Source of the DNA: Halorubrum ruber
Lineage (GTDB): Archaea > Halobacteriota > Halobacteria > Halobacteriales > Haloferacaceae
Assembly (NCBI RefSeq): GCF_018228765.1
Contig: NZ_CP073695.1
Coordinates: 2,309,218-2,341,217 of the forward strand
DNA: 32,000 bases
Reading direction: 5' to 3'
In this document: positions 1 to 21,625 of the stretch, piece after piece
How the letters are laid out: each line of letters starts with the position of its first letter
Position numbering within the stretch: position 1 is the first letter of the stretch
Program-made: the position numbers and the translations under genes
Notes under the pieces: generated by a model
What the model saw: the letters and a program-made list of their open reading frames with translations, nothing else
Database searches by the model: none
Told to the model about the DNA's origin: nothing

Positions 1-1490
1 CGCGCGGGCAGTTGCTGTTCGACGTATTCGAGTATGCAGCGAATAATCTTCTAGACCCACGTGACGAGGGTGATCTGCGCGAAATTCCGGCATATGACGA
101 TCTTCGTGAGGAGTGGCCGGGAGTGGACGTCGCCACGGTCTACGAGCAGTGGCAGCAGTTCAAGGGGCATCAGGACTTGGTGGAGTTCCATGAACTCCTC
201 GAAGCCGCTGTAGACGGTCCGCTTCCACCCACTAAGGTGGTTGTCGTGGACGAATATCACGACGCGTACCCGCTTCTGGCCCAAGTTGCAGAACGGTGGG
301 TTGCAGCCGCTAACACGGCGATCGTGGCAGGCGACCCCCTACAAGTTGTCAATGCCTATGCGGGTGCTGACCCGCGGTTCTTTACCGACCGTATGGACCA
401 CTTGCCTGAGGTGCTCCTCGATAAGTCGTGGCGGGTGGCGGAGGAACACTGGCAGGTGGCGACTCGGATGCTGCAGAGAGAGTTCGAAGCGCCACCAATC
501 GACCGACACGGTCGCGGAGAAATCCACGAGTACCAGTCTCCCGAGTTCACCCACGCGCAGAACGCGGGGTGGACGGTTCCCGGGGCGAATCAGCCGGCGA
601 GCCCCGTGGCGCTCGCAGACGAGTACGTCGCCGGGAACGACAACCGCGACATGTTGCTCCTAGCGAGAACACAGAAACAAGCGCAAGGCGTCAGCGCAGC
701 GCTCGACAAAGGCGGGGTCGTTCACGAGACCCAGGACGCCGACGACGTCGGCGGGTGGACACAACGGCGTGTAGACGCGCTAAACGCCGTATTGAAACTG
801 CAGACTGTGCCGGGAAGTTACGGGCAGGACACCAATCAGTACGGACTCATGAAGTACGACGGTGACGCGGCAGATTTCCGATTAGACGCTGAGGAAGCGG
901 CAGTCATCTTAGAGCATGCGCACGGTAGGACACTTGAACACACAAGTGATGAACTCGATTCGTTTGTGGAATCCCTACGTAGCGACTCTGAGAACTCTGA
1001 TAACGGACAGACACTGTCCGCGGATGACCTTGATAAAGTTGTCAAGCCAGCATTCTGGCGTAAGTACACGGACGGTCCGGCGACGGTGAGGCGTCTCACG
1101 AAGGCCGGCGAGTTCGAGGATGAGGACCTGAAAGCGCTGCAGAAAGCCGCTGTAAGGTACGATGACCCGGTTCCTGGGGACGTGTTGAAGAAGGTCCGTG
1201 TTCTCACGATCCACGCTTCGAAGGGTAGTGAGGCGACGGATGTCGTGATTTATGACGGGATCACGTCCACGATCGGCACTGAAATGGAGCGCTCACGTTC
1301 GACACGCGAGAACGAAGCGCGGACATGGTACGTCGGGCTGACGCGCGCGTCAGAACGCCTCCACATCATGCGTGAGGGCTTTTCTTGGGTGCAACCACAC
1401 TTACCCCGAGATATTGCTCCGGTCGCTGCAGTAGCTGCAGAGCGCGCGGTAGAAGATGAATCTGCGCGGAGCGAAGGAGGTGAGGCGTGA
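1..1490 (+). CDS. UvrD/Rep-type superfamily-1 DNA helicase, 5'-partial (frame open to the window edge, first full codon at nt 3)
   Basis: No stop between nt 3 and 1490. Motifs VVVDEYHDAYP (DExx-like motif II), VLTIHASKGSEATDVVIYDG and WYVGLTRASERLHI (UvrD C-terminal motifs V/VI). Stop TGA 1488-1490 overlaps the next ATG (TGATG). Confidence 0.75.
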   Translation, partial: RGQLLFDVFEYAANNLLDPRDEGDLREIPAYDDLREEWPGVDVATVYEQWQQFKGHQDLVEFHELLEAAVDGPLPPTKVVVVDEYHDAYPLLAQVAERWVAAANTAIVAGDPLQVVNAYAGADPRFFTDRMDHLPEVLLDKSWRVAEEHWQVATRMLQREFEAPPIDRHGRGEIHEYQSPEFTHAQNAGWTVPGANQPASPVALADEYVAGNDNRDMLLLARTQKQAQGVSAALDKGGVVHETQDADDVGGWTQRRVDALNAVLKLQTVPGSYGQDTNQYGLMKYDGDAADFRLDAEEAAVILEHAHGRTLEHTSDELDSFVESLRSDSENSDNGQTLSADDLDKVVKPAFWRKYTDGPATVRRLTKAGEFEDEDLKALQKAAVRYDDPVPGDVLKKVRVLTIHASKGSEATDVVIYDGITSTIGTEMERSRSTRENEARTWYVGLTRASERLHIMREGFSWVQPHLPRDIAPVAAVAAERAVEDESARSEGGEA

Positions 1491-2812
1491 TGAGACGTGA
1501 AACGACGCGGCGGTTAGAAAACGCTGAGAGCGCTGTCAAGGTCATTGATGTTGGCGAGCAGTACATTACCCTCGATATCCCCGAGTCTGTGTACGACGCC
1601 GAGCGAGCCATCCCGTACGAGTTGGTGGAGTTCGACGCAAAGAACTGGTTCGTTTGGGACTTAGACGAGAAGGTTCCACGAGCCCCGCATCGAAACAACG
1701 GATGGGCCGGGCGCGTGACTTGGGGGCGGGAGAACATCGACTTCGACTCCCGCGCCGGTTCAACCTTTGAGGAAGTCATCGATGCTCTCAATGGCCGCTC
1801 AGACGGCTACGTGGATGATTCGTGGCGTTTCCACGATGACGAAGAACCCCGCGAACTGTATCCGATGAGTATTCTCCCGCACGCGGACTTCAGCCCCGAA
1901 CCGGGGTTGATGTTCTTCGACTTCGACGACGTCGTCGAACCTCGCGGAGACGGGACAGCGGTCATGACACGTGAGGTGTGGGATATCGTTCAGCGACTCG
2001 AATGTTACGCTGAATTATCCACGTCAATGACGGGTGTGCACTGCTTTACGCGCGGTGAAATGCCGGGTCAGGTAGATGGGAAGAAGGTACTGAAGGACTT
2101 GAACCAAGAACTTCCGGATGGTGAAGTAGGGCACATCGAGATTTACGGATACCCCGCGAACGGTCGCGTGATGGGGACGACGTGGATGCATATTGACCAG
2201 ACTCCTCGGCATACTGTCGCAGAACGTCAGGACACGATCGTGTCGCTCACAGACGAGTTGCTCGATGACGACGATACCCTCACCGAGCGCGAGCAGGCGA
2301 AAGAAGTGTTTGAGGAGCGTGCGGACGCGGACCACGGCGAGAGTCCCGGGTCGCAATCGGCGTATTACGGGCTCAACCCGGTAACGATTGCGAACACAGG
2401 AGCGTTCCGTACTTACGCGAGTAATGGACAAGGCCCGCATCCGGTTCATGGCGGAACTAGCACACCGGATAGTGAATCCACGAACTTCGCGGTCTCACGG
2501 TCGGACGGGTGGAAGTGTTGGGCTCACGATGATGGCGGTGGAGCACTACAGCTGATTGCAGTGGAGGAAGGAATTCGCCAGTGTGGACGCGCGAGTGACG
2601 TCATGCAGCACCCAGTTGATGCGCTCCGGACGTGTTTAGCGGCACGCGACAAACACGCGCCATCTACACTCCGAGGGGAGAGCCCGCCTACAGTCGCGCT
2701 CAAGGGCGTGTTGGACGTACAAGGCGTTGATTACAACGAAGACGGACGCTTGACACGATTGAATTACGAGTTGGCGAGCGGTCTGTTCAAGGAAATGGGG
2801 TACACCGGGTGA
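1490..2812 (+). CDS. Archaeo-eukaryotic primase (PrimPol-like) replication protein with C-terminal zinc-binding-like motif
   Basis: AEP motifs LMFFDFDDV (DxD), SMTGVHCF (sGxH) and GHIEIYG..R. C-terminal HPVHGGTSTPDSESTNFAV..GWKCWAHDDGGGALQLIA block, typical of haloarchaeal plasmid/virus primases. Translationally coupled to the upstream helicase; the ORF track begins at GTG 1487, and I prefer ATG 1490. Confidence 0.7.
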   Translation: MRRETTRRLENAESAVKVIDVGEQYITLDIPESVYDAERAIPYELVEFDAKNWFVWDLDEKVPRAPHRNNGWAGRVTWGRENIDFDSRAGSTFEEVIDALNGRSDGYVDDSWRFHDDEEPRELYPMSILPHADFSPEPGLMFFDFDDVVEPRGDGTAVMTREVWDIVQRLECYAELSTSMTGVHCFTRGEMPGQVDGKKVLKDLNQELPDGEVGHIEIYGYPANGRVMGTTWMHIDQTPRHTVAERQDTIVSLTDELLDDDDTLTEREQAKEVFEERADADHGESPGSQSAYYGLNPVTIANTGAFRTYASNGQGPHPVHGGTSTPDSESTNFAVSRSDGWKCWAHDDGGGALQLIAVEEGIRQCGRASDVMQHPVDALRTCLAARDKHAPSTLRGESPPTVALKGVLDVQGVDYNEDGRLTRLNYELASGLFKEMGYTG

Positions 2813-2873
2813 CTGATATGAAAGAATCAACTGTCGGCACGAACGATGTTGTTAACATTGAGGTGGACGGCTA

Positions 2874-3158
2874 ATGCCACGCACAGAGAGCATTAACATG
2901 CGACTCAAGTGCAAGATTAACCGGTATATCGCTGATATCGAGCTCATACCTGGTCCTAATGCAGAATCGTGGCGGTGGAGCGATATCTTTGTCGCGCGTA
3001 CCGGAGCTGGCGCTGCGGATCCATCGATTGGGTACAAACTCCGCGATGCGGGGCTGCTAGTCAAACAGCCAGACGGTCGATATCGGACGACTGAGAAACT
3101 AAGCGAATACATGCAGGAAAATCACGGGGTGGATATGACAGGCCGATCTTCGGATTGA
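2874..3158 (+). CDS. Hypothetical small protein (94 aa)
   Basis: ORF only, following the PrimPol gene on the same strand. No motif recognised. Confidence 0.35.
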   Translation: MPRTESINMRLKCKINRYIADIELIPGPNAESWRWSDIFVARTGAGAADPSIGYKLRDAGLLVKQPDGRYRTTEKLSEYMQENHGVDMTGRSSD

Positions 3159-3430
3159 CAACATTGTCCGAACTGGCCCCCTCCCCGGCGGTCTCGCAGA
3201 GGCCTTCGACGACTTAGACGCCCAACCACCAAGCGAAGATCAACGAATACACTGACACGCCTGCTACCGGGGCTTCTGGGTCCCGCAAGAATGAGGGTTG
3301 ATCTCATAGTTATTGGACAATACTTGAACTCGGGGCCCGACCTAAGAGACGACGAGGCACAGACGGCGCTCGGGGTATTCGACGACACACGATCGTGTCT
3401 GCTAGAATTGTGAAAAGAATTTTCCTGTCG

Positions 3431-3613
3431 TTATGACTGTGAGATATTATCCATATCCGCGTGGTCCTTGATTAGGTTAGTGAACCACAAAATCAAATCT
3501 TGCTCCGCAAACGAAAATACATTCCACGAAACAAGTTCACTGAAGCGTTCGATTTGGCGCATAGCCACTCTAAAACCGAGCACCACTTTCTCAAACTCTC
3601 GCGGCCCCTCCAA
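3431..3613 (-). CDS. Hypothetical small protein (60 aa)
   Basis: ORF only, divergent from the 3670 operon. No motif recognised. Confidence 0.3.
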   Translation of the reverse strand: MEGPREFEKVVLGFRVAMRQIERFSELVSWNVFSFAEQDLILWFTNLIKDHADMDNISQS

Positions 3614-3638
3614 TTTACAGTTTTTAATATGGGCTAAG

Positions 3639-3645
3639 ATATAAA
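3639..3645 (+). promoter_or_regulatory. TATA-like box (ATATAAA) for the 3670-6342 operon
   Basis: AT-rich TATA-like heptamer ending 25 nt upstream of ATG 3670. This spacing is typical of haloarchaeal leaderless transcripts. Confidence 0.4.
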
Positions 3646-3669
3646 TGGCCGCCGATTACAGTTGCGATA

Positions 3670-3828
3670 ATGACTACTCTCTCTGATGACGAAGTCACAA
3701 TTTCAAGTGACAAGATTGAACAAATTCGGGAGCGCGTACTGAAAGCAGAAAAAGAGAAACTCCACTTAGATCTCCCACGTGGGATTAATGACGAAATTGA
3801 GCAAATAATTATAGAGGAAATTAACTAA
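3670..3828 (+). CDS. Small acidic protein (52 aa), first gene of the ATPase operon
   Basis: My own translation is MTTLSDDEVTISSDKIEQIRERVLKAEKEKLHLDLPRGINDEIEQIIIEEIN. It is below the ORF-track size cut-off. Its TAA shares one base with the next ATG (TAATG at 3826-3830), indicating translational coupling. Confidence 0.5.
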   Translation: MTTLSDDEVTISSDKIEQIRERVLKAEKEKLHLDLPRGINDEIEQIIIEEIN

Positions 3829-5858
3829 TGCAGCTACAACAGATTGAGTTACTAAACTTTCGGCAGTTCCGGCACGAAGCGATTGAATTTGCTCAGTCCT
3901 CTGATAAAAATGTCACCATCGTACATGGTGCCAATGGGTCCGGTAAATCGACATTACTCAACGCGTTTACTTGGCTGCTCTATGATGAGGTGGATTTCGA
4001 CACGCGTCCTGACAGACTGGCAAGTGAGGGTGCAATGGCCGAAGCATCTGTAGGTGACTCGATCTGTGTTTGTGTGGAGCTAGAATTTCTACATGATGGT
4101 ACTGAATACGTCGCTAGACGGGAGGTTGAATATGAAAAACGGGCTGACGGCGATTTTGATGGTGAACTTGTCGATGCCAATATGACAGTCAAGTACCGGG
4201 AGGGTGGCCAGTGGGAGGAGCGACTGAATCCTGATAATACGCTTGACCAGATTATCCCGAAACGATTGAGTGGCTTGTTTTTCTTTGACGGAGAGGATAT
4301 AGACGAACTTGCAGGGATTGACAATCAAGATCGCATTCAGGAAGCAATTCAAAATATAATGGGGCTCACTATTCTTGAGCGCTCTACCCGTCATTTGGAT
4401 ACTGTAGCGGACCGATTTGAAGATGAGGTGGAAAAGTATGCAAGTGATGAACTTTCAGATCTTATCTCTCAAAAGCGTGATATAGAGGAGGCTATTGATG
4501 ATCTTCAACGAAAACTCCAAGATACGAAGCGGTCTAAGGATCAAGTAGAACAAGAGATATTTGATCTTGAGCAAAAACTTGAACGGTTAGATGAGAGCGC
4601 CGCTCTTCAAGAGCGAAGAAATGAATATCGAGAAGAACGCTCCGATATTGAAGAGAATATTGAACAAATAAATGAACAGATCCGGAAAGAAGTCAGTGAT
4701 CACGGCTTCATTCCCCTCTCAATGCCCCTTATTCGGGAGACTGCAGAAGAGCTAGATTCGATGCGGGAACGTGGACTCATTCCTTCTGAATTGAGCAATT
4801 CATTCATTGATTCTTTACTTGAATCTGGGAGCTGTCTCTGCGGTCGTGAGTTGAAGCCAGGAACTGAACATTATCGTAAGGTGGAGGCGATGAAAGGTGA
4901 GGCAATTGGTGATGGCGTTGAACAAGGGGCACTTCGTATTGTTGGACACCTAAATCGGGTCTCCGAGGAAGAATCCAAATTCTTTGAAACTGCTGATGAA
5001 CTTATCGAGGAGAGAAAAGAACTTCATGACGAGCTTGACGATTATGATGAGCTAATCGATGAGATAAGTTCGGAACTACAGAAGCTTGATCAGACAACTG
5101 AATCTGGTCAGACAATTGGTGAGTTAGAATCTGAACGTGAAGAAAACGAAAGAAAGCGAGACGACCTCATTTCAGATATAGGCGGTATTGAAGAGCGAAT
5201 CGATCACAAGGAAGATGAGTTAGAGAGCCTCAAAGAGGAGATAGAGCAGCAACGCGATGAACATGAGGAGGCCCTCCTAGCCAAGCGTCGGCAAAAGGCG
5301 ACTGAACTTGTAGAAGAAGAGCTAGAATCTTCGTTCTCTGAGTTCAAAAATCAGGTCCGGGAGTGGGCAAATGACGAAATAAGAAAAACGTTTGGTGAGA
5401 TTGCGAGCAAAAACTTCACTGCTGAAATAACCGAAGAATTCAAGCTCAAAATCTGGCAAGAGGTCGGTGACGATCGTGTCGAAGTAGACAAATCAACCGG
5501 GGAACGCCAGATTGCTAGTCTTGCTTTTATTGGCAGTTTAGTCAAAATCGCCAGACAGAGATATGAATCTGAGAAAGACTCAGAGTACTTCACTGGTGGA
5601 ATTTATCCGTTGGTGATGGACTCTCCTTTTGGCGCTCTTGACAAGCGGCATCGACAAAAAGTTGGAGAGGTTATCCCCACTCTTGCAAACCAAGTAGTGG
5701 TCTTTGCGACCGACTCGCAGTGGGAAGGGCCAGTTGAAGAGGAGATGTCCGACAGGATCGGCGAACAATTTTGGCTTGATTACGACCCGGGAGAGTCGCC
5801 CGGCGAGTACCCCCAAACGAAAGTTCGCTCAGAGAGCACATCCATGGAAGCTAACTAA
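3828..5858 (+). CDS. DndD/SspC-like SMC-type AAA ATPase (676 aa)
   Basis: N-terminal IELLNFRQF..HGANGSGKSTLLNAF (Walker A). Long E/K/D/L-rich coiled-coil middle with a central CLCGRE hook-like motif. C-terminal STGERQIASLAF (signature-like) and YPLVMDSPFGALDKRHR (Walker B/D-loop of the DndD type). Confidence 0.85.
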   Translation: MQLQQIELLNFRQFRHEAIEFAQSSDKNVTIVHGANGSGKSTLLNAFTWLLYDEVDFDTRPDRLASEGAMAEASVGDSICVCVELEFLHDGTEYVARREVEYEKRADGDFDGELVDANMTVKYREGGQWEERLNPDNTLDQIIPKRLSGLFFFDGEDIDELAGIDNQDRIQEAIQNIMGLTILERSTRHLDTVADRFEDEVEKYASDELSDLISQKRDIEEAIDDLQRKLQDTKRSKDQVEQEIFDLEQKLERLDESAALQERRNEYREERSDIEENIEQINEQIRKEVSDHGFIPLSMPLIRETAEELDSMRERGLIPSELSNSFIDSLLESGSCLCGRELKPGTEHYRKVEAMKGEAIGDGVEQGALRIVGHLNRVSEEESKFFETADELIEERKELHDELDDYDELIDEISSELQKLDQTTESGQTIGELESEREENERKRDDLISDIGGIEERIDHKEDELESLKEEIEQQRDEHEEALLAKRRQKATELVEEELESSFSEFKNQVREWANDEIRKTFGEIASKNFTAEITEEFKLKIWQEVGDDRVEVDKSTGERQIASLAFIGSLVKIARQRYESEKDSEYFTGGIYPLVMDSPFGALDKRHRQKVGEVIPTLANQVVVFATDSQWEGPVEEEMSDRIGEQFWLDYDPGESPGEYPQTKVRSESTSMEAN

Positions 5859-5859
5859 A

Positions 5860-6342
5860 ATGGGACGTATTATCAATTACAAGAAAACCGAGCTGTACGA
5901 CACGCTGGTTGATGAGTACGAAGTCTTTGAGAATTACTATGACCTTCTCATCTTCCTTGCGGTTATAGGATATAAGGAAGACAACCCCGTCCGCGAGGGA
6001 TACCGTGGTAGTAGTTCGGAGGGTACAGCTGGTGAATCGGGGCTACATAATGTTTATTCTCAGGATCTGTATCGTACGATTATGGCTAGTCTAGCCTTTC
6101 AGGATACCGGAGACCCAGAGGCTCTCGTTGACGAACAAACACATATGAAAGTTCTTGCTCAGTATGCTGCAGGTGGACTAGAGATTGCCGAAGACGAGTT
6201 CGGAGATATTGCTGGTGATCCTACAGATGCGATAATCAATTATATAAAAATGTCTCAGAGCGAGGGCACCGGAACTGAAGGAGAGCTAGCCAAGATTGTT
6301 CAGAGTTTTGATGACGAGATGATGAACATCGAAGGGGAGTAA
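5860..6342 (+). CDS. Hypothetical 160-aa protein coupled to the ATPase (possibly related to small Dnd-system-associated proteins; unverified)
   Basis: ATG 5860 lies 1 nt after the ATPase stop. The ORF-track start at 5704 would overlap the ATPase by 155 nt and is unlikely. Acidic composition; no motif confidently recognised. Confidence 0.65.
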   Translation: MGRIINYKKTELYDTLVDEYEVFENYYDLLIFLAVIGYKEDNPVREGYRGSSSEGTAGESGLHNVYSQDLYRTIMASLAFQDTGDPEALVDEQTHMKVLAQYAAGGLEIAEDEFGDIAGDPTDAIINYIKMSQSEGTGTEGELAKIVQSFDDEMMNIEGE

Positions 6343-6416
6343 ATTAGCATTACAGCAAGTATTTTTAAATTAGCCATATCCACAACATTAAGACGCCGCT
6401 GAGTATCAAGGGGACC

Positions 6417-8903
6417 ATGGAAGAGGAATCCAATACGCCACTTTGTGGCAAAGAGATTTTTCTCTATCCGGGTGACCCGGATGGAACCGGTATGCTAGCG
6501 TACGATACCACCCAATACAGAGATCAGTATGATAATCTTCAGTTTGCAGACAGTACACAATTTATTAGTTCATTAGAAGAGAATATACGCCTTGAAAATC
6601 GTTCTCTCCTCCGCGTAGCAGAGGGAGAGAGATTTGTCGTACCTGAATACCAGCGGAATTTTACTTGGGAAGAGGATCAACATGAGGAACTTTGGAACAC
6701 TATATTATCTATTCAGGACCTAAAGCCGAAAGCGAATAATCTTCCTGTTGATACTTACTTTGGAACTGTGTACGTCGCCCGCGACGCCGACGGAGATGTA
6801 TTCGAGATTATTGACGGTCAGCAGCGTCTGACCACAGTAGCAATTATTCTAAAGAATCTAAAGCAGCAGCTAGAAGCTCGATTCGACAGTATAGATGGGC
6901 AGCTTCTCGAATATGCACAACATGTCTGTGACCGCCATTTAGAGGATCTATTATTCCGTGCTGACGGTCCGGCTATTACTCCCTTCATTACGTTGAATGA
7001 CCACGATCAGCCGTTCTTTGATATTGTGTTTAAAGAGAAAGAGGACCGGATTAAACCAGTAAAAAATCTCCCGCAATATGATGGACGAAAGACAAACTCA
7101 ATCACTGTGCAGTCACTTCTTGATGAACTTGATATCCCAGAAGAAGCATACGAAGAGGATGAAGACTTTGAGGACACTGACATGCTTGAATCGTACCGCT
7201 ACTATGGAGATGCACATAGACGACTCGTTAATGCTGACAAATTCTACAAGAAAAATATTAGACAGTTCATTGAGAAGGATATCTTTGAAACTCCGGCGAC
7301 AAAGGTCCGAGCGTTGCTAAATCTGACTCACTATATTCTCCGTTCCCTTCGCGTCTCAGAATGTATCTTTGAGACTAGTAATCAGGAGCTCCGAATCGAA
7401 GTCTTTCAATCGCTCAACGACCGTGGTGTTGAGTTATCGAATATGGATAAGATTCGAGCTCGTGTTGTGGGGCGATTCCAAGGAGAATCAGATAGTGGTG
7501 TACAGATCGATCGCTGGGAAAGCGTTGTCAAGACGTTTGGAGGAGATTCCGATGATGTTGAAGACTTTCTTGCCCACTATCTTGCAGCGACAGAGAAAGA
7601 ATTCTCTACGGTCACAGAAGCGAAAAACGAAATGCTCGAAGCATTTCGTCTCAAACAAATCGGTCATCACGATATCCAATCGAGACTGGCAAGCCCAGGC
7701 CAGGCTCGGGACTTCTTAGAAGAATTAGTGAATTATGCACAGCGATATCGTGAAATTGTTTCTGCCGATTTGACAGATGACGATTTAGAGCTGAAAGACC
7801 CAGAAAAAAGCGAGTGTGAGGAGATTCTCAAGCGGCTCAACAAACTTGGAACTAAACAGTGGCGGCCGTTCGTGATGTACGTCTACCAAGCGGTGACGGA
7901 AGCCCCACAAAAAGATCAGTTTTTGGTCGATGTCTTGAAAACAGTAGAGAATATCTCGTTCCGATTTTCTATATCGGATCTTGTCGGCACAGTCGTTGAT
8001 GACACTTATCCGGATTCCTGCCAAGAATTTCGAGAGCTTGAGCAGACGGGGAATCAATTTGATTCCGAGGAGGTATCTGAGATTCTTATTGAGAATATCG
8101 ATAATTCTGCACGACAGATGTTCGGCGAATCATTCATCGATCGACTTGTTAGTAAAGAGAGTTGGAACAACAACAAGACAAAACAACTGTACTTGAAGGT
8201 CGCGGATGAAGACTTTAGGAAGAGAAATCAGGTTGGGATCACGAACTCTCACCTCAGTTCAGACTCTAGTGAAGTACATATTGAACACGTACTCCCAGTA
8301 TCATACATTTTGCCTAAGAAAGACCATCCGTATGCGTGGTTAGAGCACTTCTTCCGTAATAACGGAGATAACAAGATTCGCACTCAGATCGATTATCTTC
8401 AGTCACGTGACGCACACGAGCTGTCACCCGGTGACGACGGCTATGATGAGATCGAGCGAATCGTAAATGGAATCGAGGAACGCTTCGTACGTGATCTTGG
8501 AAACATGATTTTGCTTGACGAAGCGGTCAACCGGCCGATTCAGAATCGTCTCTTTTCAGTCAAGCTCAAGGAGTACCACAAAGAGCACAGCAAGGACATG
8601 GAAAACATCATCAACCAATACTTCGGTACTGATGGAGCAATTGACGAAGCGGAACTTCAGCGCTTACTAGCGCTTGATATGCCCGATGATGAGACGAGAT
8701 CTAGTTCTCCCTCACTTGTTCAAGATTTCAACGAGTGGTGGACGTATGAGCGCCTCGTACAACGGAAATCACAGCTAGTGTCTGAAATTTTGGAATCACT
8801 CACATTCCCAACCAGACCAGACGAGTTCGAACCGTTTGTAGATGATATCGAAAATATAGTCGAGGAAGATGTTCAGAAGCGTTTAGCAGTTCTAACTGTC
8901 TAA
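6417..8903 (+). CDS. DUF262 (ParB-like NTPase) - DUF1524 (HNH-type nuclease) protein, GmrSD/SspE architecture (828 aa)
   Basis: N-terminal VPEYQRNFTWEEDQHEELW and IIDGQQRLTT (DUF262 hallmarks). C-terminal VHIEHVLP and GNMILLDEAVNRPIQNRLFSVKLKEY (DUF1524 hallmarks). TTTTTAAAT box at 6362-6370 suggests its own promoter. Confidence 0.85.
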   Translation: MEEESNTPLCGKEIFLYPGDPDGTGMLAYDTTQYRDQYDNLQFADSTQFISSLEENIRLENRSLLRVAEGERFVVPEYQRNFTWEEDQHEELWNTILSIQDLKPKANNLPVDTYFGTVYVARDADGDVFEIIDGQQRLTTVAIILKNLKQQLEARFDSIDGQLLEYAQHVCDRHLEDLLFRADGPAITPFITLNDHDQPFFDIVFKEKEDRIKPVKNLPQYDGRKTNSITVQSLLDELDIPEEAYEEDEDFEDTDMLESYRYYGDAHRRLVNADKFYKKNIRQFIEKDIFETPATKVRALLNLTHYILRSLRVSECIFETSNQELRIEVFQSLNDRGVELSNMDKIRARVVGRFQGESDSGVQIDRWESVVKTFGGDSDDVEDFLAHYLAATEKEFSTVTEAKNEMLEAFRLKQIGHHDIQSRLASPGQARDFLEELVNYAQRYREIVSADLTDDDLELKDPEKSECEEILKRLNKLGTKQWRPFVMYVYQAVTEAPQKDQFLVDVLKTVENISFRFSISDLVGTVVDDTYPDSCQEFRELEQTGNQFDSEEVSEILIENIDNSARQMFGESFIDRLVSKESWNNNKTKQLYLKVADEDFRKRNQVGITNSHLSSDSSEVHIEHVLPVSYILPKKDHPYAWLEHFFRNNGDNKIRTQIDYLQSRDAHELSPGDDGYDEIERIVNGIEERFVRDLGNMILLDEAVNRPIQNRLFSVKLKEYHKEHSKDMENIINQYFGTDGAIDEAELQRLLALDMPDDETRSSSPSLVQDFNEWWTYERLVQRKSQLVSEILESLTFPTRPDEFEPFVDDIENIVEEDVQKRLAVLTV

Positions 8904-9097
8904 GACTAGACTCTGCTATGGCCTACTCTTCAAATATACACTTACAGGGAATAGTAGGTCACTGAAGGATTGGAATAGGGCAGACTGGCCTATTTAAAAC
9001 GGTACTTCATCTTTTTCGAACTCTCCTCCCAATCATAGCCCTAATCACAGTCTTCACAATCGCATATACATGGCCCCTCTAATCAAATCTGTCAGAA

Positions 9098-9757
9098 TCA
9101 GACTGGTTGCTTTACAAACTCTGTTACAACGTAGAACGGAAGCGTATCAATTAGCGCGACAAGCAGCTTCACGATGTACTGCCCAGCGACGATTGAGGCG
9201 AGTGCCCAGCCCCACGTTGGCTCCCCACCAAGGCCGAGTGCCGGGAAGATAGCGAAGCCGAGCGTGATGAACACGATCGTGTCCACGCCTTGACTGACTG
9301 CAGTAGACCCACAGTTCCGAAGCCAGCGATGGCGACCGCCGGTGCGAGTCTTCAGATTGGCGAATAATCGGACGTCGAGATGCTGGGCGAACGCGAGCGC
9401 GACGACGGAGGCGAGGATGATCGATGCGGAGCCGCCAAGCGTCGATACGAACGCGTCTTGTCCACCGTAGAACGGGGCAGACGGCATCCAAATGGCGAGG
9501 AACACGAGCGCATACGCGATGACGAGCGTGACGACGGTTCCGTTGACCACGGTCGCAGCGTACTCTTTCCCGTGGTACTCGACAAGCAGGTCTGAAGCGA
9601 GGTAAGCCACGCCGAAGGCGACGAAACCGGCGGGGACGGCGACGCCCCCAAGCCCGGGGAGCTCGATCCACGTCAGTTTCGCTGCGAGGACGTTTGCGAG
9701 AACGATTGAACCGGCGAACACGGCGGTGAAGATCGCGCGAGTATCCTCAGTCTCCAT
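9098..9757 (-). CDS. yhhQ: VUT-family (YhhQ/DUF165) queuosine-precursor (preQ0/preQ1) transporter
   Basis: Polytopic membrane protein. The block AQHLDVRLFANLK..RHRWLRNCGSTAVSQGVDTIVFITLGF aligns by eye with E. coli YhhQ QILDVHVFNRLRQ..WWLAPTASTLFGNVSDTLAFFFIAF. Divergent from queD. Confidence 0.8.
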   Translation of the reverse strand: METEDTRAIFTAVFAGSIVLANVLAAKLTWIELPGLGGVAVPAGFVAFGVAYLASDLLVEYHGKEYAATVVNGTVVTLVIAYALVFLAIWMPSAPFYGGQDAFVSTLGGSASIILASVVALAFAQHLDVRLFANLKTRTGGRHRWLRNCGSTAVSQGVDTIVFITLGFAIFPALGLGGEPTWGWALASIVAGQYIVKLLVALIDTLPFYVVTEFVKQPV

Positions 9758-9911
9758 CAGCTGTCACCGTCTTGTATGGGCGTACAGTTTCCTGTGGTTC
9801 GCTGTCTTGAGCTGACCCCAGTAGAAACCGGTGCGCAACGACCGATAGGGTAGACGGTGGATGAGTGTGAGTCGGGTTGCTGTTCCATCGGTGAAGTAAC
9901 GAAACTCAATC

Positions 9912-9919
9912 TTTATATA
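9912..9919 (+). promoter_or_regulatory. TATA box (TTTATATA) for queD-queE(-queC)
   Basis: Ends 22 nt upstream of ATG 9941, consistent with a leaderless transcript. This supports 9941 rather than the track's GTG 9857 as the start. Confidence 0.5.
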
Positions 9920-9940
9920 TTCCCCGAATATTCTTCGAGT

Positions 9941-10402
9941 ATGTCCCGAAGTATATCAAGAGATGAATCCGAATCAGACGTCCTTCGTGAGGCCGGCCAA
10001 CGAACCCTCCACATCGGAGAGGATAACCCCATCCGAATTAGCTCGGGCCACCGTATTCTCCACCACGACGGAAAGTGCTCGCGGCCACACGGCCACAACT
10101 ACGAGATCGCCGTCGAAGTTACCGGCGAACTCATCGAAGAGGGGTGGGTCGTCGACAAAGGTGACGTCACAGACGTCATCGACGCGTGGGATCACCGATT
10201 CCTTGTCGAGGAGGGTGACCCGCTCGTCGACGCATTCGAGGCGTCGGGCGACGGCGACGCCCTCGTCGTCCTCGATCACCCACCAACGGCAGAGGTAATG
10301 AGCGTGCTCCTCGAACAGCGAATGCTCGACGCGTTCCCCGACACCGTCTCCGACGTGTCGGTGTCGGTGAGTGAAACCGGCGAGCTCTGTGCGAGTTACT
10401 GA
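9941..10402 (+). CDS. queD: 6-carboxy-5,6,7,8-tetrahydropterin synthase
   Basis: GHRILHHDGKCSRPHGHNYEIAVEVTG (QueD/PTPS Cys-His-His zinc/catalytic motif). Stop overlaps the queE ATG (TGATG). Confidence 0.9.
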   Translation: MSRSISRDESESDVLREAGQRTLHIGEDNPIRISSGHRILHHDGKCSRPHGHNYEIAVEVTGELIEEGWVVDKGDVTDVIDAWDHRFLVEEGDPLVDAFEASGDGDALVVLDHPPTAEVMSVLLEQRMLDAFPDTVSDVSVSVSETGELCASY

Positions 10403-11178
10403 TGCCAGTCGTAAGCGATGTGGAAGAACCCACAACGGACGCTGACGCGGCTGGTGAGGGCCTCCCAATCAACGAGGTGTTCTACTCGTTGCAGGGTGAG
10501 GGGACGCTCGCAGGCGTTCCCTCTGTCTTCGTGCGGACTTCTGGGTGTAACCTGCGGTGTTGGTTCTGCGATTCCTACCATACGTCGTGGGAGCCGACCG
10601 GCGCGTGGCGCGATGTCGACACGATCGTGGAAGAAGTACAGTCGCACGAACAGGCGAACCACGTCGTACTCACGGGCGGGGAGCCGCTCATCCACGAGGA
10701 GTCCATCGATCTCTTGGAGCGACTCGACGCCGAGGGGTACCACACAACGGTGGAGACAAACGGGACCATCTACCGGGACGCACCAATCGACCTCGCAAGC
10801 ATCAGCCCGAAGCTGGCGAGCAGCACGCCGACGCCGGATCGGGACCCGAAAGGCGAGGGCGAGTGGGAAGAGAAACACGAGCAAAACCGGATCGATATGG
10901 ATGCGTTGTCCCAGATGGTCGACGACTACGAGACGCAACTCAAGTTCGTCGTGACCGATGAGACAGACCTTCCGGAGATTACGGACCTCGTCGATCGAGT
11001 GCGGGCGGCGGCGACGACGACCATTGCTGACGACGACGTGTTGTTGATGCCGGAAGGTATGACGCGGGAGCAACTTGACGGAACGCGAAGCCAGGTGGCA
11101 GAGTTAGCGATGGAGTACGGCTACCGATACACCCCCCGACTCCACGTGGACCTGTGGAATGACGCACCCGGGACATGA
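10402..11178 (+). CDS. queE: 7-carboxy-7-deazaguanine synthase (radical SAM)
   Basis: INEVFYSLQGEGTLAGVPSVFVRTSGCNLRCWFCDS (QueE-type CxxxCxxC cluster motif) and VLTGGEPL. Confidence 0.9.
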   Translation: MPVVSDVEEPTTDADAAGEGLPINEVFYSLQGEGTLAGVPSVFVRTSGCNLRCWFCDSYHTSWEPTGAWRDVDTIVEEVQSHEQANHVVLTGGEPLIHEESIDLLERLDAEGYHTTVETNGTIYRDAPIDLASISPKLASSTPTPDRDPKGEGEWEEKHEQNRIDMDALSQMVDDYETQLKFVVTDETDLPEITDLVDRVRAAATTTIADDDVLLMPEGMTREQLDGTRSQVAELAMEYGYRYTPRLHVDLWNDAPGT

Positions 11179-11263
11179 ACGTCGCCTTGGTCGGCCCGAC
11201 CGATGGAGTGCCGTGGGGGCGTGGTGAACAGGACGACAATTGACTCAACACAACCGAAAATAC

Positions 11264-11953
11264 ATGAGCAATAAAAGCGCGGTCATTCTGGTTTCTGGCG
11301 GGATGGATAGTGCGACAGCGGTGTACGAAGCAATGGATCAGGGGTACGAGCCGTACTTCCTCCACACCTCATATGGGCAACGCACCGAAGACAAAGAGTA
11401 CGAGTGCGCACAGGCACTTGCCGAGGAGGTCGATGCGGCTGACTTCCTCCACATTGAAACGGGCCATCTCGCACAGATTGGGGCGTCGAGCCTGACGGAC
11501 GAAGAGATGGACGTCGCCGATGCTGACTTGGAGAGCGACGAAATTCCCACGTCGTACGTCCCCTTCCGCAACGCGAATCTACTGTCGATGGCAACATCGT
11601 ACGCAGAGGCGACTGACTCGGAGGCGCTGTTTATCGGAGCCCATTCTGAGGACTTCTCCGGGTATCCGGACTGTCGTCCGGCCTTTTTTGACGCCTTTCA
11701 GCAGGTGATCAACGTCGGAACGAAGCCCGAGACGGAAATCGAGTTGAAAGCGCCGTTCGTCGAGTGGTCGAAAACAGACATCGCTGAGCGTGGGTTAGAA
11801 CTTGGTGTCCCATACGACATCACGTGGTCGTGTTACCGGGACGAAGAGCCGGCGTGCGGGACGTGTGATGCGTGTGCGTTCCGGCTTGAGGCGTTCCGAA
11901 ATGCTGGGTCACGTGACCCGATTGCGTACGCTGAGCGACCTAAGTTTTCGTAA
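11264..11953 (+). CDS. queC: 7-cyano-7-deazaguanine (preQ0) synthase
   Basis: AVILVSGGMDSATA PP-loop and C-terminal zinc cysteines WSCY..CGTCDAC. ATG 11264 is preferred over the track's TTG 11240. Confidence 0.9.
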   Translation: MSNKSAVILVSGGMDSATAVYEAMDQGYEPYFLHTSYGQRTEDKEYECAQALAEEVDAADFLHIETGHLAQIGASSLTDEEMDVADADLESDEIPTSYVPFRNANLLSMATSYAEATDSEALFIGAHSEDFSGYPDCRPAFFDAFQQVINVGTKPETEIELKAPFVEWSKTDIAERGLELGVPYDITWSCYRDEEPACGTCDACAFRLEAFRNAGSRDPIAYAERPKFS

Positions 11954-11997: not shown

Positions 11998-12399
11998 TTA
12001 GGATTTGTTGCTGGTGTCGCCAGTAAACTCATCCTCTCCGTTGAGTCGTCCCGTGACTCCATTTATAGCATAGATGAGTGTTGCTGCGACGTCGAACGCC
12101 TCTGTTCGTGACAGTCCCGAGATGGGCTTGGTCACGAACTCTTCTCCGTCCATATTCACACCAGTGATTGGAGTTACCGTATAGTCGCCATCGCCCATCG
12201 TCCCGTCAAGACGAACGAGGATTGTTTGATCGTCATCGTATATCCACTCAACGTAGTACTCATCATGAATCTCTTCGCTCCATCCTGACGGATAATAATC
12301 AAGACGCTCAGTTTCGCTTTCTGGCATGAGACGTATCTTGGTGTCGTCTACAGCAACAAATAAATCTGGTTGCGTGTCCTTCTGATGTAGTCCTCTCAC
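11998..12399 (-). CDS. Hypothetical acidic protein (133 aa) lying between the real and ghost queC 3' ends
   Basis: ORF with haloarchaeal-style acidic composition. No motif recognised. Confidence 0.5.
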   Translation of the reverse strand: MRGLHQKDTQPDLFVAVDDTKIRLMPESETERLDYYPSGWSEEIHDEYYVEWIYDDDQTILVRLDGTMGDGDYTVTPITGVNMDGEEFVTKPISGLSRTEAFDVAATLIYAINGVTGRLNGEDEFTGDTSNKS

Positions 12400-12421
12400 T
12401 GTATTAGCGCACGTGATTTTT

Positions 12422-12488
12422 GAAGCGTTCCGAAATGCTGGGTCACATGACCCGATAACGTACTCTGAGCGGCCAGAATTCTCGTGAA
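12422..12488 (+). pseudogene. Orphan queC 3'-terminal fragment (last 21 codons plus stop)
   Basis: 67 nt align without gaps to 11887-11953, with 56/67 identical by my count. It translates EAFRNAGSHDPITYSERPEFS* versus EAFRNAGSRDPIAYAERPKFS* in the intact gene. There is no upstream queC body. Confidence 0.75.
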
Positions 12489-12789: not shown

Positions 12790-13006
12790 GATTTCTGATC
12801 GACATTGCTACTGTTCAACAGGAGAACTCACGTACCAACCAGCCTGGTAAATTCCCACAGTCTGCGGAGAATCTCTGTCGGATATAGAAGAGAGGCTACC
12901 CAGATGGGCACCACTTAGAGAAGATAGACCGAATTGATTCAAAAAATGATATATAGTTTATAATTCTAATGGAAAGATATATTTCATCACCTACAAACCA
13001 AAGAAT

Positions 13007-13732
13007 ATGGCTGATGATCCCGATATCATGACGGAGATTCTTGATGATATGAAATTGGATGACGATCGTGTCGATAATGAGTCCACCGATGGTCAATCCC
13101 AAAGTGAAGACATTCCGAATCTAGATGATTTACAAAAAGATGAGCGTCTTGAGCAACTAACCGAAGTAGGTCTTTTAACGGACGAAGAATATGATATACT
13201 GACTGAATATTATGATCGTACCACTAGTTCTGGCCAGCAAGAGTTCGGAACGCCGGTATACACCAGTGAAGGCTCAGAATTTGACTTTTCAATAGTTGGG
13301 GTTTTCCAAGATGTGAATACTAAAATTCTAACACTTCCGGAGTTCCTGAGCGTTGAGGAAGCTGACGATACCGAGACGTGGGATAATGAAGGGGGCCCTG
13401 GTCGAACGATTGTTTGTTTTCAGATTTACAATCACAGCTCCGAAGAAATCATGCTAAAACACAAAAATATCGAATATATCGGAGACAATGGAATTGCGTA
13501 CAATTATGACGGGAATCCATTAGTTAGTGATAGGCTTGAACCAGGCTGGCGAACCGATAACTGGGAATATATCGGACCAGATACAAGAATTCAGTACGCA
13601 TCTGTAATCGAGATGCCTGTGATTCCTGACTCATTGAAGCTCTCCGGATACTGGGAAGATACACATGAAATTGAACTAATAGATGACTTGTTTTTCCCAA
13701 AATCTGATTTACCGACTTCCGTTGAGATTTGA
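13007..13732 (+). CDS. Hypothetical acidic protein (241 aa); possible SHOCT-like motif plus C-terminal beta-sandwich (tentative)
   Basis: ORF with ATG and an upstream AT-rich region. The GLLTDEEYDILTEYY segment resembles SHOCT. The domain assignment is weak. Confidence 0.55.
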   Translation: MADDPDIMTEILDDMKLDDDRVDNESTDGQSQSEDIPNLDDLQKDERLEQLTEVGLLTDEEYDILTEYYDRTTSSGQQEFGTPVYTSEGSEFDFSIVGVFQDVNTKILTLPEFLSVEEADDTETWDNEGGPGRTIVCFQIYNHSSEEIMLKHKNIEYIGDNGIAYNYDGNPLVSDRLEPGWRTDNWEYIGPDTRIQYASVIEMPVIPDSLKLSGYWEDTHEIELIDDLFFPKSDLPTSVEI

Positions 13733-13855
13733 GAAGCTGACTCACTCTTTACAGAACTTTCAAATCAGATAATCAATCGCTGAAAGCACGTATAGACCGT
13801 ATCAGAGTCAGAACTTGTCACCTGAGGGTGTCTCAATAGAGCCTCTAAGAAAAAT

Positions 13856-15277
13856 CTATCCGGCGAGGAGGTCATATCTACGCTTTACTTCTTGTAATGA
13901 CCCCGTGGATGTCGGAACACCATCAACATCGGCGTCCGGATGATTCCGAGCAGTTTCCGCAAACATCGAAACTCGTTCGAGTTCCTTCCGGATGAGTGTC
14001 CGCTCAATTTCATACTGATCGTCGGACAGCATTTCTGGGTGTCTTTGAGTATCTGGTATTGTGATGAAGTCATGAATTACGGCATATTTTTTACCTTCGT
14101 ATTTTCGAAGGATCCGTCCTCTTCGTTGGACGTATTGTCGTGGATTCGATGTACTTGCTAGGATGTATGCCGTCCGTGTAGCAGGAATATCAACGCCCTC
14201 GTCAAGACATCTAATAGAAGTTAGAACGTCAATTTCTTCCTCATCGAACCGTGTCAACAGCTGTTTTCGTTCCTGTTGATTTTCGCGTGCGGTAAAGCGC
14301 TCAACAGACAAGTTACACTCATTTCGGATTCTCTCTGTTGTCAGGTCTACGTGACGCTGTAATTGGCCATCAACCTCCAATTTGCCATCACTACAGTAGA
14401 CAAGCGTGTGCTTGGTATCTATCTCAGAATTCAATAAATCAATAAGCAAGAATAGCTTCTCACGAGCGGTACCAATTAATCGAGCTCTTTTAAAAAGAGC
14501 TTGCTGTAAAGCAGGATTCTGTTCAAGATTCAAATTCCCTTCTTTGTCATTCGATTTCCCTGCAAGTCGACCGATCTTTGTGGTCAAACGCATGTACTCC
14601 TCCATCTCTTCGTCCTGTAATTCGACTATATGGGGAATGTAGTAATACTCACATAGTGCACCGGCTTCGATAGCTTTCTCAAGTCCATATTCAAAAACGG
14701 TTCCTCCAAAATATGCATCCAATTCTTTCGTCCCTTCTTCATCATACCATCTTTCTGGCGTTGCCGAAAGACCAAGTCGGAGGTCAAACTGATCACTAAG
14801 TGCCTCCTGTGTCTGAGCAGCACCCATATGGTGTACTTCATCTGCAATCAGCATTGAATTCCCGTTAGCCCTTCGAATTGTTTTTCTCGCAGATTCTCCT
14901 GACAGCGTTCGGTGTGTTGTAACTACTACGCAGGTGTCACGCATTCCGTTGTTGAATTCTAGCAGCTCACGTTCAAGCCGAGGTTGCCAATTACGTCGTG
15001 ATTCAAAGGCAAGAACAGGGGTAGCACCGAAATCATCGAGGTTAGATTTCCACTGATTAACGAGATGTTGATATGGCACTGCGACGACGAGCAGGAATTT
15101 TTTATCGACAGACTGATCCACACGCGTCGCGGCAAGGAGGGCTGTGACCGTTTTACCAGTCCCTGTTGCCATTTCTAGTATTCCCTTTCCTCCGGCAGAC
15201 ATCCACTCTTGTATTGCTTCTTGTTGATATGGACGGGCTTCTATCCAATCAGGAACGTGGAGGCCCTCATGAGACAT
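13856..15277 (-). CDS. Superfamily-2 helicase (ResIII + Helicase_C; XPB/Rad25-like DEAH type), 473 aa
   Basis: ARPYQQEAI (Q-like), MATGTGKT (Walker A), LIADEVHHMG (DEVH box), GLSATPER (motif III), LDEGVDIP and QYVQRRGRILR (motif VI). Start at ATG 15277 (MSHEGL..) is preferred because a TATA-like box sits 25 nt upstream, and the longer track ORF would overlap the divergent gene. Confidence 0.85.
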   Translation of the reverse strand: MSHEGLHVPDWIEARPYQQEAIQEWMSAGGKGILEMATGTGKTVTALLAATRVDQSVDKKFLLVVAVPYQHLVNQWKSNLDDFGATPVLAFESRRNWQPRLERELLEFNNGMRDTCVVVTTHRTLSGESARKTIRRANGNSMLIADEVHHMGAAQTQEALSDQFDLRLGLSATPERWYDEEGTKELDAYFGGTVFEYGLEKAIEAGALCEYYYIPHIVELQDEEMEEYMRLTTKIGRLAGKSNDKEGNLNLEQNPALQQALFKRARLIGTAREKLFLLIDLLNSEIDTKHTLVYCSDGKLEVDGQLQRHVDLTTERIRNECNLSVERFTARENQQERKQLLTRFDEEEIDVLTSIRCLDEGVDIPATRTAYILASTSNPRQYVQRRGRILRKYEGKKYAVIHDFITIPDTQRHPEMLSDDQYEIERTLIRKELERVSMFAETARNHPDADVDGVPTSTGSLQEVKRRYDLLAG

Positions 15278-21568: not shown

Positions 21569-21600
21569 CGATTAGTTCTGCTGTGCGTTGTCGTCACTGC

Positions 21601-21625
21601 TTTTTGATTCTATTTTCGAATTTTT
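21601..21625 (+). terminator. Oligo-T tract cluster (T5, T4, T5)
   Basis: Three T-runs within 25 nt, about 35 nt downstream of the stop at 21568. Archaeal terminators are typically oligo-T. Confidence 0.3.

Follow-up and report, generated by a model that had tools for sequence, protein, structure and literature searches.

A candidate restriction arm of PbeBCD, a displaced PbeA-type helicase and a DndI/SspE-like nuclease in a predicted 7-deazaguanine island of Halorubrum ruber

In a 32,000-nucleotide stretch of the Halorubrum ruber chromosome (NZ_CP073695.1, positions 2,309,218 to 2,341,217; henceforth the window, to whose numbering all coordinates refer unless another locus is named), four consecutive plus-strand genes at 3670-8903 encode, in order, a 52-residue protein, a 676-residue ATPase, a 160-residue protein and an 828-residue DUF262-DUF1524 nuclease. 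The first three are PbeB, PbeC and, most probably, PbeD of the published PbeABCD system. A fourth gene of the same system, pbeA', lies 5 kb away on the other strand, next to an operon for a TGT-family transglycosylase (TGT), a GHKL ATPase and two further proteins. We lean towards the reading that the four genes and pbeA' together constitute the restriction arm of a 7-deazaguanine modification-dependent island of the Dpd/BRIGADE kind. Both the modification of DNA by the TGT module and its functional coupling to the Pbe and nuclease genes are steps that we infer.

Direct reading of the DNA bears out the gene structure given in the original prediction, namely four open reading frames (ORFs), a TAATG overlap and gaps of 1 and 74 nucleotides, exactly as claimed. 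The gene pbeB (3670-3828, plus strand, 52 residues) shares one nucleotide with pbeC (3828-5858, plus strand, 676 residues) at the stop/start junction aacTAATGcag (3826-3830). A single nucleotide separates pbeC from pbeD (TAAaATG, 5856-5862), the latter (5860-6342, plus strand, 160 residues) being read from an ATG within a longer TTG-initiated ORF that begins at 5704. The nuclease gene (6417-8903, plus strand, 828 residues) follows after 74 nucleotides (6343-6416) that contain the TATA-like element TTTTTAAATT, and is probably a transcription unit of its own with its own promoter. A scan for promoters and terminators returned matches at chance level, with bacterial models that are unsuited to archaea. 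A chance origin of the ORFs is no issue, since they are long and have family matches with E-values down to 7e-229.

The 676-residue protein matches the PADLOC model of PbeC with an E-value of 7e-229 over model positions 1-650 of 651, and a domain scan returns an ABC/SMC-type ATPase with a coiled coil, as first described. Across 120 homologues the pair C336-x-C338 halfway along the coiled coil, the Walker A residues G34, K40 and T41, the signature residues S556, G558 and E559 and the Walker B residue D598 are at least 98% conserved. We assign the protein to the CxC (zinc-hook) coiled-coil ABC ATPases, a sister clade of DndD; Rakesh et al. 2024 (PMC10853773) equate the CxC zinc-hook ABC ATPase with PbeC and report DndD to be without the CxC hook. 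The initial description of this ATPase as DndD/SspC-like has to be given up. Against the DndD model TIGR03185 the protein scores 160.6 bits, under the cut-off of 245.85, and its identity to the genuine DndD encoded in the related haloarchaeal locus L007 (L-numbers denote the loci compared below) is 24-25%; the sub-cut-off score and the presence of the CxC hook rule out DndD. SspC is ruled out as well, there being no SspC among the best 25 of 130 PADLOC matches and no Ssp partner in the window; SspC is a ring-forming ATPase of the ORC/Cdc6 type, not of the ABC type (2025 review, PMC12707154). The strength of the PbeC match also rules out an independent system of a new kind composed of an SMC ATPase and a nuclease, an option that had been raised at the outset and finds no support.

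The two small partners, which had gone unrecognised, are identified as PbeB and, most probably, PbeD. PbeB is acidic and has no match in the profile libraries. Its counterparts lie just upstream of PbeC, with identities of 73% (L003), 71% (L002), 51% (L005) and 43% (L007, beside dndCDEA), and a small protein ("SP") upstream of the CxC-ABC ATPase is a role named in PMC10853773. PbeD matches TIGR04062, "DNA phosphorothioation-associated protein 4", with an E-value of 4e-13 and 49.7 bits, under the cut-off of 74.25, and its homologues in L002, L003, L005 and L007 bear PF27807 (DNA_S_mod_dnd_assoc_4). A protein of the PbeD type has been described as the DndE cognate of PbeC (PMC10853773), and the view of PbeD as a DndE-type protein comes solely from the literature. 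A profile of six PbeD sequences found no relevant match among PDB sequences, hhalign against two haloarchaeal DndE sequences returned a probability of 0.2%, and a single-sequence AlphaFold2 (AF2) model reached a predicted local distance difference test score (pLDDT) of 38, unusable for fold comparison.

The 828-residue protein exceeds the Pfam cut-offs for both GmrSD_N (104 bits) and GmrSD_C (30.9 bits), so that its initial reading as a DUF262-DUF1524 protein of the SspE/GmrSD kind stands. D133-G-Q-Q-R137, E623, H624, P627, N696 and N705 show no variation among 35 homologues, of which at least 90% also keep H621; the invariance of E623, H624, P627, N696 and N705 indicates that the nuclease is under selection. 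The best PADLOC matches are HEC-06 and Orf5, with SspE weaker, and a Foldseek search with the AF2 model (pLDDT 80) retrieves DndI (9jfl, E 2e-13), SspE (7drr, E 6.5e-10) and BrxU (7p9k, E 1e-4). The protein is thus predicted, on the grounds of sequence and model, to be a DndI/SspE-like enzyme combining a ParB-like NTPase with a His-Me nuclease. In a scan of metagenomes for further members with the nuclease alignment, whose back-translated patterns for DGQQR and HxEH proved too generic, about 75 of 80 loci held unrelated DUF262 proteins, the family members being L008-L012 only. Distant homologues with 26-30% identity have unrelated neighbours. L011, a 5.4-kb brine metagenome contig, carries at 399-3736 a YhhQ-type transporter that is 80% identical to the one in the window, directly upstream of a family member with 26% identity, and provides a further case of transporter-nuclease adjacency.

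The gene pbeA' (13856-15277, minus strand; the ORF reaches 15463, with the probable start methionine at 15277) is the fourth Pbe gene of the same system, a connection that the original prediction had not made. It encodes the superfamily 2 (SF2) helicase part of PbeA, matching the PADLOC PbeA model with an E-value of 2e-165 over positions 242-672 of 672 only, and TIGR04095 (dnd_restrict_1) with an E-value of 3e-168 and 560.7 bits against a cut-off of 600. The helicase has preserved its motifs I, II and VI (GTGKT, DEVH and QRRGR). No HKD nuclease domain is found in PbeA', and the segment YHEKIGLIKD...GSINET of the dnd-linked PbeA of L089 is missing. The orthologue in L003, 74% identical and immediately upstream of pbeB, is likewise HKD-less. 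Because PbeA' has lost the HKD domain, the DUF262-DUF1524 protein is the only recognisable nuclease of the arm.

Divergent from pbeA' in the window is the operon DUF6884-TGT-GHKL-ArcS-like. Its first gene (15443-15877, plus strand) encodes a DUF6884/YaaA-like protein, a weak relative of DpdC (Pfam DUF6884 E 8e-14; YaaA family E 5e-7; PADLOC DpdC E 9e-7), and is found upstream of the TGT gene in L003, L006, L088, L091 and L092 every time. The TGT itself (15882-17123, plus strand, 413 residues) comprises the catalytic barrel only: it scores 88.7 bits against tgt_general (cut-off 47.6), remains under the cut-offs for TgtA (137.8 against 350) and DpdA NF041059 (29.7 against 200; PADLOC DpdA E 2e-6), and aligns solely to residues 84-331 of the 582-residue arcTGT 1iq8. 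It has none of the C1, C2 and PUA tRNA-binding domains, and the 35 homologues compared all share D125, D249 and the four Zn ligands (C328, C330, C333 and H359). Judged by these features, it may be a DNA guanine/7-deazaguanine exchanger and a functional analogue of DpdA. The GHKL (MORC/MutL-like) ATPase (17126-18679, plus strand; Pfam HATPase_c_3 E 3e-17) has MORC2 and MutL as the closest solved sequences and the N-terminus of the BbrUII/HgiDII restriction enzymes as its best NCBIfam match (E 3e-12); its gene directly follows that for the TGT in each of the six related loci. The last protein (18734-20755, plus strand; Pfam TGT and DUF5591) is ArcS-like and consists of a TGT-like domain and DUF5591. 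It shows the ArcS signature PCx3KPYx2Sx2H (PMC5699537) at residues 527-541, as well as DSGG and CxCxxC, reaches 82.8 bits with ArcS NF040592, under the cut-off of 440, and has no detected PUA domain. This gene stands beside TGT-GHKL in L003, L091 and L092, is missing in L006 and L088, and its product might make an archaeosine-type base on DNA.

Between the pbeBCD-nuclease segment and pbeA' lies a cassette for preQ0 (9098-11953, G+C 0.56-0.61), which is made up of a yhhQ-type transporter gene (9098-9757, minus strand; Pfam Vut_1, TIGR00697 over its cut-off), queD (9857-10402; Pfam PTPS), queE (10402-11178; Pfam Radical_SAM) and queC (11240-11953; Pfam QueC, TIGR00364 over its cut-off). The 3' end of queC is duplicated by a 66-nucleotide direct repeat, 85% identical, at 11886-11951 and 12420-12485, the two copies flanking a 133-residue minus-strand ORF (11998-12399) without a family match; the pair looks like an insertion scar or the leftover of a second queC copy. 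Relatives of the TGT and of PbeC were absent from IMG/VR viral contigs in single-protein and alignment scans, a weak sign of a cellular system. DNA would fit the TGT module better as a substrate than tRNA or protein, because the enzyme is without tRNA-binding C-terminal domains, keeps its Zn site, is partnered by a MORC-like ATPase and has no viral relatives.

Synteny supports the tie of the Pbe and nuclease genes to the TGT operon, which they also adjoin in an independent locus (L003) at about 72% amino acid identity. In Halorubrum sp. GN11_10-6 (L001) the same island is present at 90-94% nucleotide identity, with the helicase divergent from the TGT operon. Two loci from brine metagenomes (L003 and L004) have the order ArcS-like, GHKL, TGT, DUF6884 divergent from pbeA', pbeB, pbeC, pbeD and the DUF262-DUF1524 gene, the latter five forming one same-strand block with junctions of 82-86 nucleotides or overlaps. 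Between the window and L003 eight of nine genes are 68-77% identical at the amino acid level (DUF6884, 53%), which argues that the two arms were inherited together. The compact layout of L003 and L004 is probably ancestral; relative to it, the pbeBCD-nuclease segment of H. ruber is inverted and the que cassette interposed. No convincing repeats account for this inversion. In L001 about 1.1 kb of extra DNA, including a 148-residue minus-strand ORF, lies between the nuclease gene and yhhQ (L001 5244-6403 against window 8927-9030), and a different segment replaces window 12825-13854; the island is actively rearranging at its module junctions.

The nuclease is also found with the TGT module where the Pbe genes are not. 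In Haloterrigena sp. SYSU A558-1 (L006, nuclease 68% identical) DUF6884-TGT-GHKL is followed about 80 nucleotides on by the nuclease gene on the same strand, and Natronorubrum sp. A-ect3 (L088, nuclease 67% identical) has the same layout; no Pbe genes occur within 10 kb of either nuclease. L006 encodes a DpdJ-like helicase (E 6e-52) and a DpdK-like PLD protein (E 2e-16), and L088 a similar large helicase and a small PLDc_2 gene. In L007, L089 and L090 nucleases with 51-53% identity stand beside dndCDEA and full-length pbeABCD, the PbeC there being 40% identical to that of the window. Each of these dnd-linked loci has its dnd genes directly alongside, never at a distance. All seven informative loci with nucleases of at least 49% identity thus hold a DNA-modification module within 10 kb (four TGT, three dnd), and the junction to that module is about 80 nucleotides in four of the seven. 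A neighbor-joining tree, which carries no support values, divides the verified nucleases into a TGT-linked clade and a dnd-linked clade. Three pairs of matches on contigs of equal length hint that TGT may occur together with the nuclease or with PbeC in further loci. Since the nuclease accompanies either TGT or dndCDEA modules, the arrangement recalls that of Salmonella, in which DndBCDE is combined with DndFGH and DndI, i.e., one mark with two effectors.

Either arm is also found without the other. L002 and L005 (PbeC 64-69% identical) have HKD-less pbeA'BCD beside homologues of the DpdJ-like and DpdK-like genes of L006 and no TGT or DUF262-DUF1524 gene within 10 kb. L091 and L092 (TGT 59-66% identical) have DUF6884-TGT-GHKL and the ArcS-like gene with a different, YprA-type helicase gene set and no Pbe or nuclease gene within 10 kb. 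A search of a plasmid collection returned no near-identical DNA, and a megaplasmid of Natrinema sp. SYSU A 869, in which TGT-GHKL and PbeC are 43 kb apart, is uninformative. On this sequence comparison, the TGT module seems to act like a modification module with exchangeable restriction partners: DpdJ/K-like in L006 and L088, YprA-type in L091 and L092, and Pbe in the window. The pair of a large helicase (about 1360-1410 residues) and a small PLD nuclease (129-151 residues) recurs beside HKD-less pbeA'BCD or the TGT module (L002 216-4767; L005 13393-17905; L006 238-4897; L088 1-2988), which suggests a wider modular haloarchaeal network of Pbe, DpdJ/K and TGT. This pair is not in the window, where tblastn and Pfam scans of the ORFs found no PLD nuclease, MZB or PLDc domain or DpdJ homologue, and where the DpdJ-like and DpdK-like proteins of L006, used as tblastn queries, gave best E-values of only 0.015 and 0.63. 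Other defence genes lie near TGT modules, such as a Piwi-domain (prokaryotic Argonaute, pAgo) gene with a PLDc_2/Aq_aa27 partner in L091 (16962-21245) and a SMODS (CD-NTase-like) gene in L006 (15871-16827), some 3.4 kb away from the nuclease gene; they fit defence islands and counsel caution against over-reading proximity.

The sequence of events that we propose would begin with preQ0, made by QueC, QueD and QueE or imported by the YhhQ-type transporter. The TGT, aided by the MORC-like GHKL ATPase, would swap guanine in host DNA for a 7-deazaguanine base, which the DUF6884 (DpdC-like) and ArcS-like proteins would convert further. On the restriction side the PbeC-PbeD pair would load onto and scan DNA, PbeA' would translocate, and the small acidic PbeB would regulate. 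The ParB-like NTPase domain of the 828-residue protein would change conformation at the host mark, as in DndI and SspE, both phosphorothioate (PT) readers for which such a switch has been shown, and its His-Me domain would introduce nicks into foreign DNA without the mark and leave self DNA alone. The genes of the restriction arm are identified; the activities given to their products here are deduced by analogy. Xiong et al. 2019 (PMC6459918) found 320 of 553 pbeAC loci to be without dndCD and proposed a pairing with other modifications. Going one step further, it is conceivable, and we offer this tentatively, that PbeA'BCD and the DndI-like nickase have exchanged a phosphorothioate in the DNA backbone for a 7-deazaguanine base as their self-mark. 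Effectors of the Pbe and DUF262-DUF1524 types would in that case be readers of general use, open to re-targeting and to new pairings with DNA marks of unrelated chemistry, and haloarchaea would possess a modular supersystem of the Dpd kind, with one TGT-GHKL writer that can take a Pbe, a DpdJ/K-like or a YprA-type arm in turn.

Several observations weigh against a 7-deazaguanine-dependent restriction arm. The TGT enzyme is far under the DpdA equivalog cut-off and closest to the tRNA enzyme arcTGT, and the presence of 7-deazaguanine in H. ruber DNA is a prediction. In the window the arms are 5 kb apart, with pbeBCD-nuclease inverted relative to pbeA', and the separate occurrence of PbeA'BCD relatives at 64-69% (L002, L005) and of TGT modules (L091, L092) makes the association recurrent but facultative. 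As homologues with 51-53% identity adjoin dndCDEA, the nuclease may read no particular mark; its gene shares a strand with its neighbours in some loci and is convergent to them in others, which would suit an independent gene of a defence island. The synteny sample is small, with seven informative nuclease loci and four PbeC lineages. Finally, DndC, DndA and a canonical DndE were not found in the 32 kb window (tblastn best E 0.077-0.9; Pfam scans of other large ORFs), in agreement with the initial report of no sulfur-incorporation genes there, and this absence of dnd/ssp genes covers the window out of a 3.02-Mb chromosome. The initial interpretation has stood in part: the notion of an effector or restriction arm tied to the TGT operon and uncoupled from local PT genes holds up, backed by the block in L003 and by the nuclease genes that follow TGT-GHKL in Haloterrigena and Natronorubrum, and the PbeA' helicase had been missed.

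A different account would have these genes as independent defence genes that happen to be co-located: the nuclease would be a stand-alone Type IV enzyme (GmrSD/BrxU-like) acting on modified viral DNA, PbeA'BCD would be solitary without a host mark, or inactive, and the proximity to the TGT would reflect island clustering. To its credit are the gap and TATA-like element that the nuclease gene has to itself, its differing orientation among loci, the matches to GmrSD and BrxU folds, the loci with one arm and not the other, the many pbeAC loci without nearby dnd (PMC6459918), the dPreQ1 carried by haloviruses (PMC6884629) and neighbourhoods full of other defence genes (pAgo in L091, SMODS in L006). 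We nevertheless judge it unlikely, seeing that a modification module accompanies the nuclease in all seven informative loci and not the homologues at 26-30%, that four junctions to the neighbouring module measure about 80 nucleotides, that verified nucleases with a TGT link and those with a dnd link are split between two clades and that, from the window to L003, the block of nine genes has diverged as a whole. Moreover, a Type IV enzyme directed against 7-deazaguanine would be hazardous beside a module that probably places such bases in host DNA. It is less probable again that the system is an ordinary phosphorothioate-dependent Pbe with a DndI-like enzyme, served by dndCDEA (or iscS plus dnd) elsewhere on the H. 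ruber chromosome. PbeABCD does need PT in the sole tested case (PMC6459918), PbeA' comes close to the cut-off of TIGR04095, a "DNA phosphorothioation system restriction enzyme", nuclease and PbeC homologues (51-53% and 40%) flank dndCDEA in L007, L089 and L090, and the closest solved folds, DndI and SspE, are PT readers. However, dndA/C/D/E are absent from the 32 kb window and from within 10 kb in L001-L006 and L088, dnd-linked PbeA has kept the HKD domain that the clade of the window has lost, the dnd-linked nucleases belong to the other clade, and their dnd genes are never remote.

Two further alternatives concern the modification arm. The 828-residue protein could belong there as the archaeal counterpart of DpdB, leaving PbeA'BCD alone as the restriction arm. 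DpdB is a DGQQR NTPase with an SspE-like C-terminal domain that is required for DpdA activity (PMC10164549), and the one-strand order DUF6884-TGT-GHKL-DUF262/DUF1524 in L006 and L088 looks like a single modification operon. Yet DpdB is without the EHxxP nicking motif (PMC10164549), whose residues in the 828-residue protein are invariant together with N696 and N705 in 35 homologues, the core TGT module of L091 and L092 lacks a DUF262-DUF1524 neighbour within 10 kb, and close homologues of the protein also accompany dndCDEA; because EHxxP is invariant and the GHKL ATPase, the likelier helper, is always with the core TGT module, an effector role like that of DndI and SspE is favoured and the DpdB-like role appears very improbable. 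We give the least credence to a TGT operon that marks no DNA and instead modifies tRNA or protein (Cap9/Cap10-type deazaguanylation), in which case there would be no mark to read. There are defence systems in which TGT-family enzymes and homologues of QueC have taken on the N-terminal deazaguanylation of proteins (bioRxiv 10.1101/2025.04.06.647259), and the 413-residue enzyme is closest in sequence to tRNA arcTGT and ArcS. On the other side, Pfam scans of the ORFs found no CD-NTase or SMODS gene in the window, and Cap10 is without the Zn site (same preprint), which is invariant here as C328, C330, C333 and H359; on these two grounds type IV CBASS-like deazaguanylation is rejected. The enzyme also has no C1, C2 or PUA domain for tRNA, its operon sits in a low-G+C mobile island adjoined by helicase/nuclease modules, including DpdJ-like and DpdK-like genes, and the same gene set is read by others as a Dpd-like DNA hypermodification cluster (bioRxiv 10.1101/2025.09.15.676423).

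The genes pbeBCD and the nuclease gene are part of that low-G+C island, as the block 3000-9000 has a G+C content of 0.44-0.48 against about 0.70 in the chromosome past 29 kb. Three proteins of the island have exact matches on the H. ruber chromosome (QUO47190.1, QUO47192.1 and QUO47202.1). A tRNA-Leu gene (28902-28986, plus strand; ARAGORN) sits exactly where the G+C content jumps from that of the island (0.44-0.60) to about 0.70, and is likely the right-hand border; Rfam at the gathering threshold over the whole window gave no match to it, and a focused run gave 48.4 bits with RF00005 against a cut-off of 29. The window holds no second copy of the 3' end of this tRNA, which places the other border outside it. 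The rest of the island, at 21014-28700, includes a serine resolvase (22094-22861), an HNH endonuclease (23295-23777), a TRAM-domain protein (25956-26369) and several ORFs of 134-207 residues without a family match. At the left edge of the window an ORF for a UvrD/GajB-like helicase (12-1490, 492 residues; its C-terminal part alone matches PADLOC GajB, E 3.5e-16) shares 4 nucleotides with an ORF of 441 residues (1487-2812) without a Pfam, NCBIfam or PADLOC match; the pair (12-2812) has a G+C content of 0.58-0.60, unlike the Pbe block, and may be another two-gene defence pair.

These results provide a concrete candidate partner, 7-deazaguanine, for the "solitary" Pbe loci (the 320 of 553 without nearby dnd), and do so in genetically tractable haloarchaea. 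They bear on how Pbe halts virus replication, given that the HKD nuclease of PbeA is lost here and a DndI-like nickase acquired or retained, and on what DUF262-DUF1524 enzymes sense, as sister clades go with phosphorothioation or with TGT modules, i.e., with chemically unrelated marks. Should the modification of DNA prove true, a restriction partner would be added to the predicted haloarchaeal BRIGADE systems, and cellular 7-deazaguanine modification of DNA would extend experimentally to archaea. The TGT modification module itself is not new, since L006, L088, L091 and L092 fit the description of BRIGADE, predicted Dpd-like systems that combine YprA helicases and PLD nucleases with a 7-deazaguanine cluster and, according to a 2025 preprint (bioRxiv 10.1101/2025.09.15.676423), occur exclusively in halophilic archaea. 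What appears to be undescribed so far is a Pbe-type restriction arm on a TGT module, together with a DUF262-DUF1524 nuclease as its recurrent partner. The literature searched, including the available BRIGADE text, makes no mention of either; Krishnan et al. 2020 (PMC7544218), on the original CxC ABC-ATPase neighbourhoods, lay outside its scope and may hold an earlier mention.

Among the known systems, Dpd (DpdA/B/C with DpdD-K) and BRIGADE share with the island a TGT-family enzyme whose neighbouring ATPase looks obligatory, a DpdC-like protein, preQ0 genes and a DGQQR protein. The DpdJ-like and DpdK-like restriction genes of the relatives L006 and L088 reflect the same logic of base hypermodification joined to a helicase and nuclease. 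The TGT of the window differs in being no DpdA equivalog and arcTGT-derived, and the adjacent ATPase in being of the GHKL/MORC type, not DpdB; DpdB is without a nuclease motif, whereas the DGQQR protein here keeps EHxxP. In place of a YprA/DpdJ helicase and PLD nuclease, neither of which is in the window, there is PbeA'BCD. GmrSD and BrxU, of Type IV, have in common with the 828-residue protein the Pfam domains GmrSD_N and GmrSD_C and, for BrxU (7p9k), a fold match with an E-value of 1e-4. They are stand-alone or BREX-associated and attack modified DNA, whereas the clade of the window consistently stands beside a module for host modification, a position that suggests reversed polarity or a role in sensing. 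DndI (of IscS-DndBCDE-DndI; PDB 9JFL, PMC11662687) and SspE (PDB 7DRR) share with it the DUF262 NTPase with DGQQR and the DUF1524 His-Me nickase with EHxxP, and like it are single-gene effectors beside a DNA-modification module. DndI has 596 residues against 828 here, with about 14% identity in the structural alignment, and DndI and SspE are partnered by a Dnd or Ssp PT module and sense PT via a hydrophobic patch, whereas the clade of the window is TGT-based and its sister clade dnd-linked. PbeABCD (PMC6459918; PMC10853773), finally, has the same order of small protein, CxC ABC ATPase and dnd_assoc_4 protein with translational coupling; a PbeA-type SF2 helicase is present in the island, adjacent in L003, and the founding example is likewise haloarchaeal. 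Canonical PbeA is an HKD endonuclease fused to the SF2 helicase and encoded by the first gene of the operon, whereas here the protein is HKD-less and its gene 5 kb off on the other strand. The known system works with dndCDEA phosphorothioation; in the window, which has no dndCDEA, TGT and preQ0 genes lie nearby instead, and a DUF262-DUF1524 nuclease has been appended.

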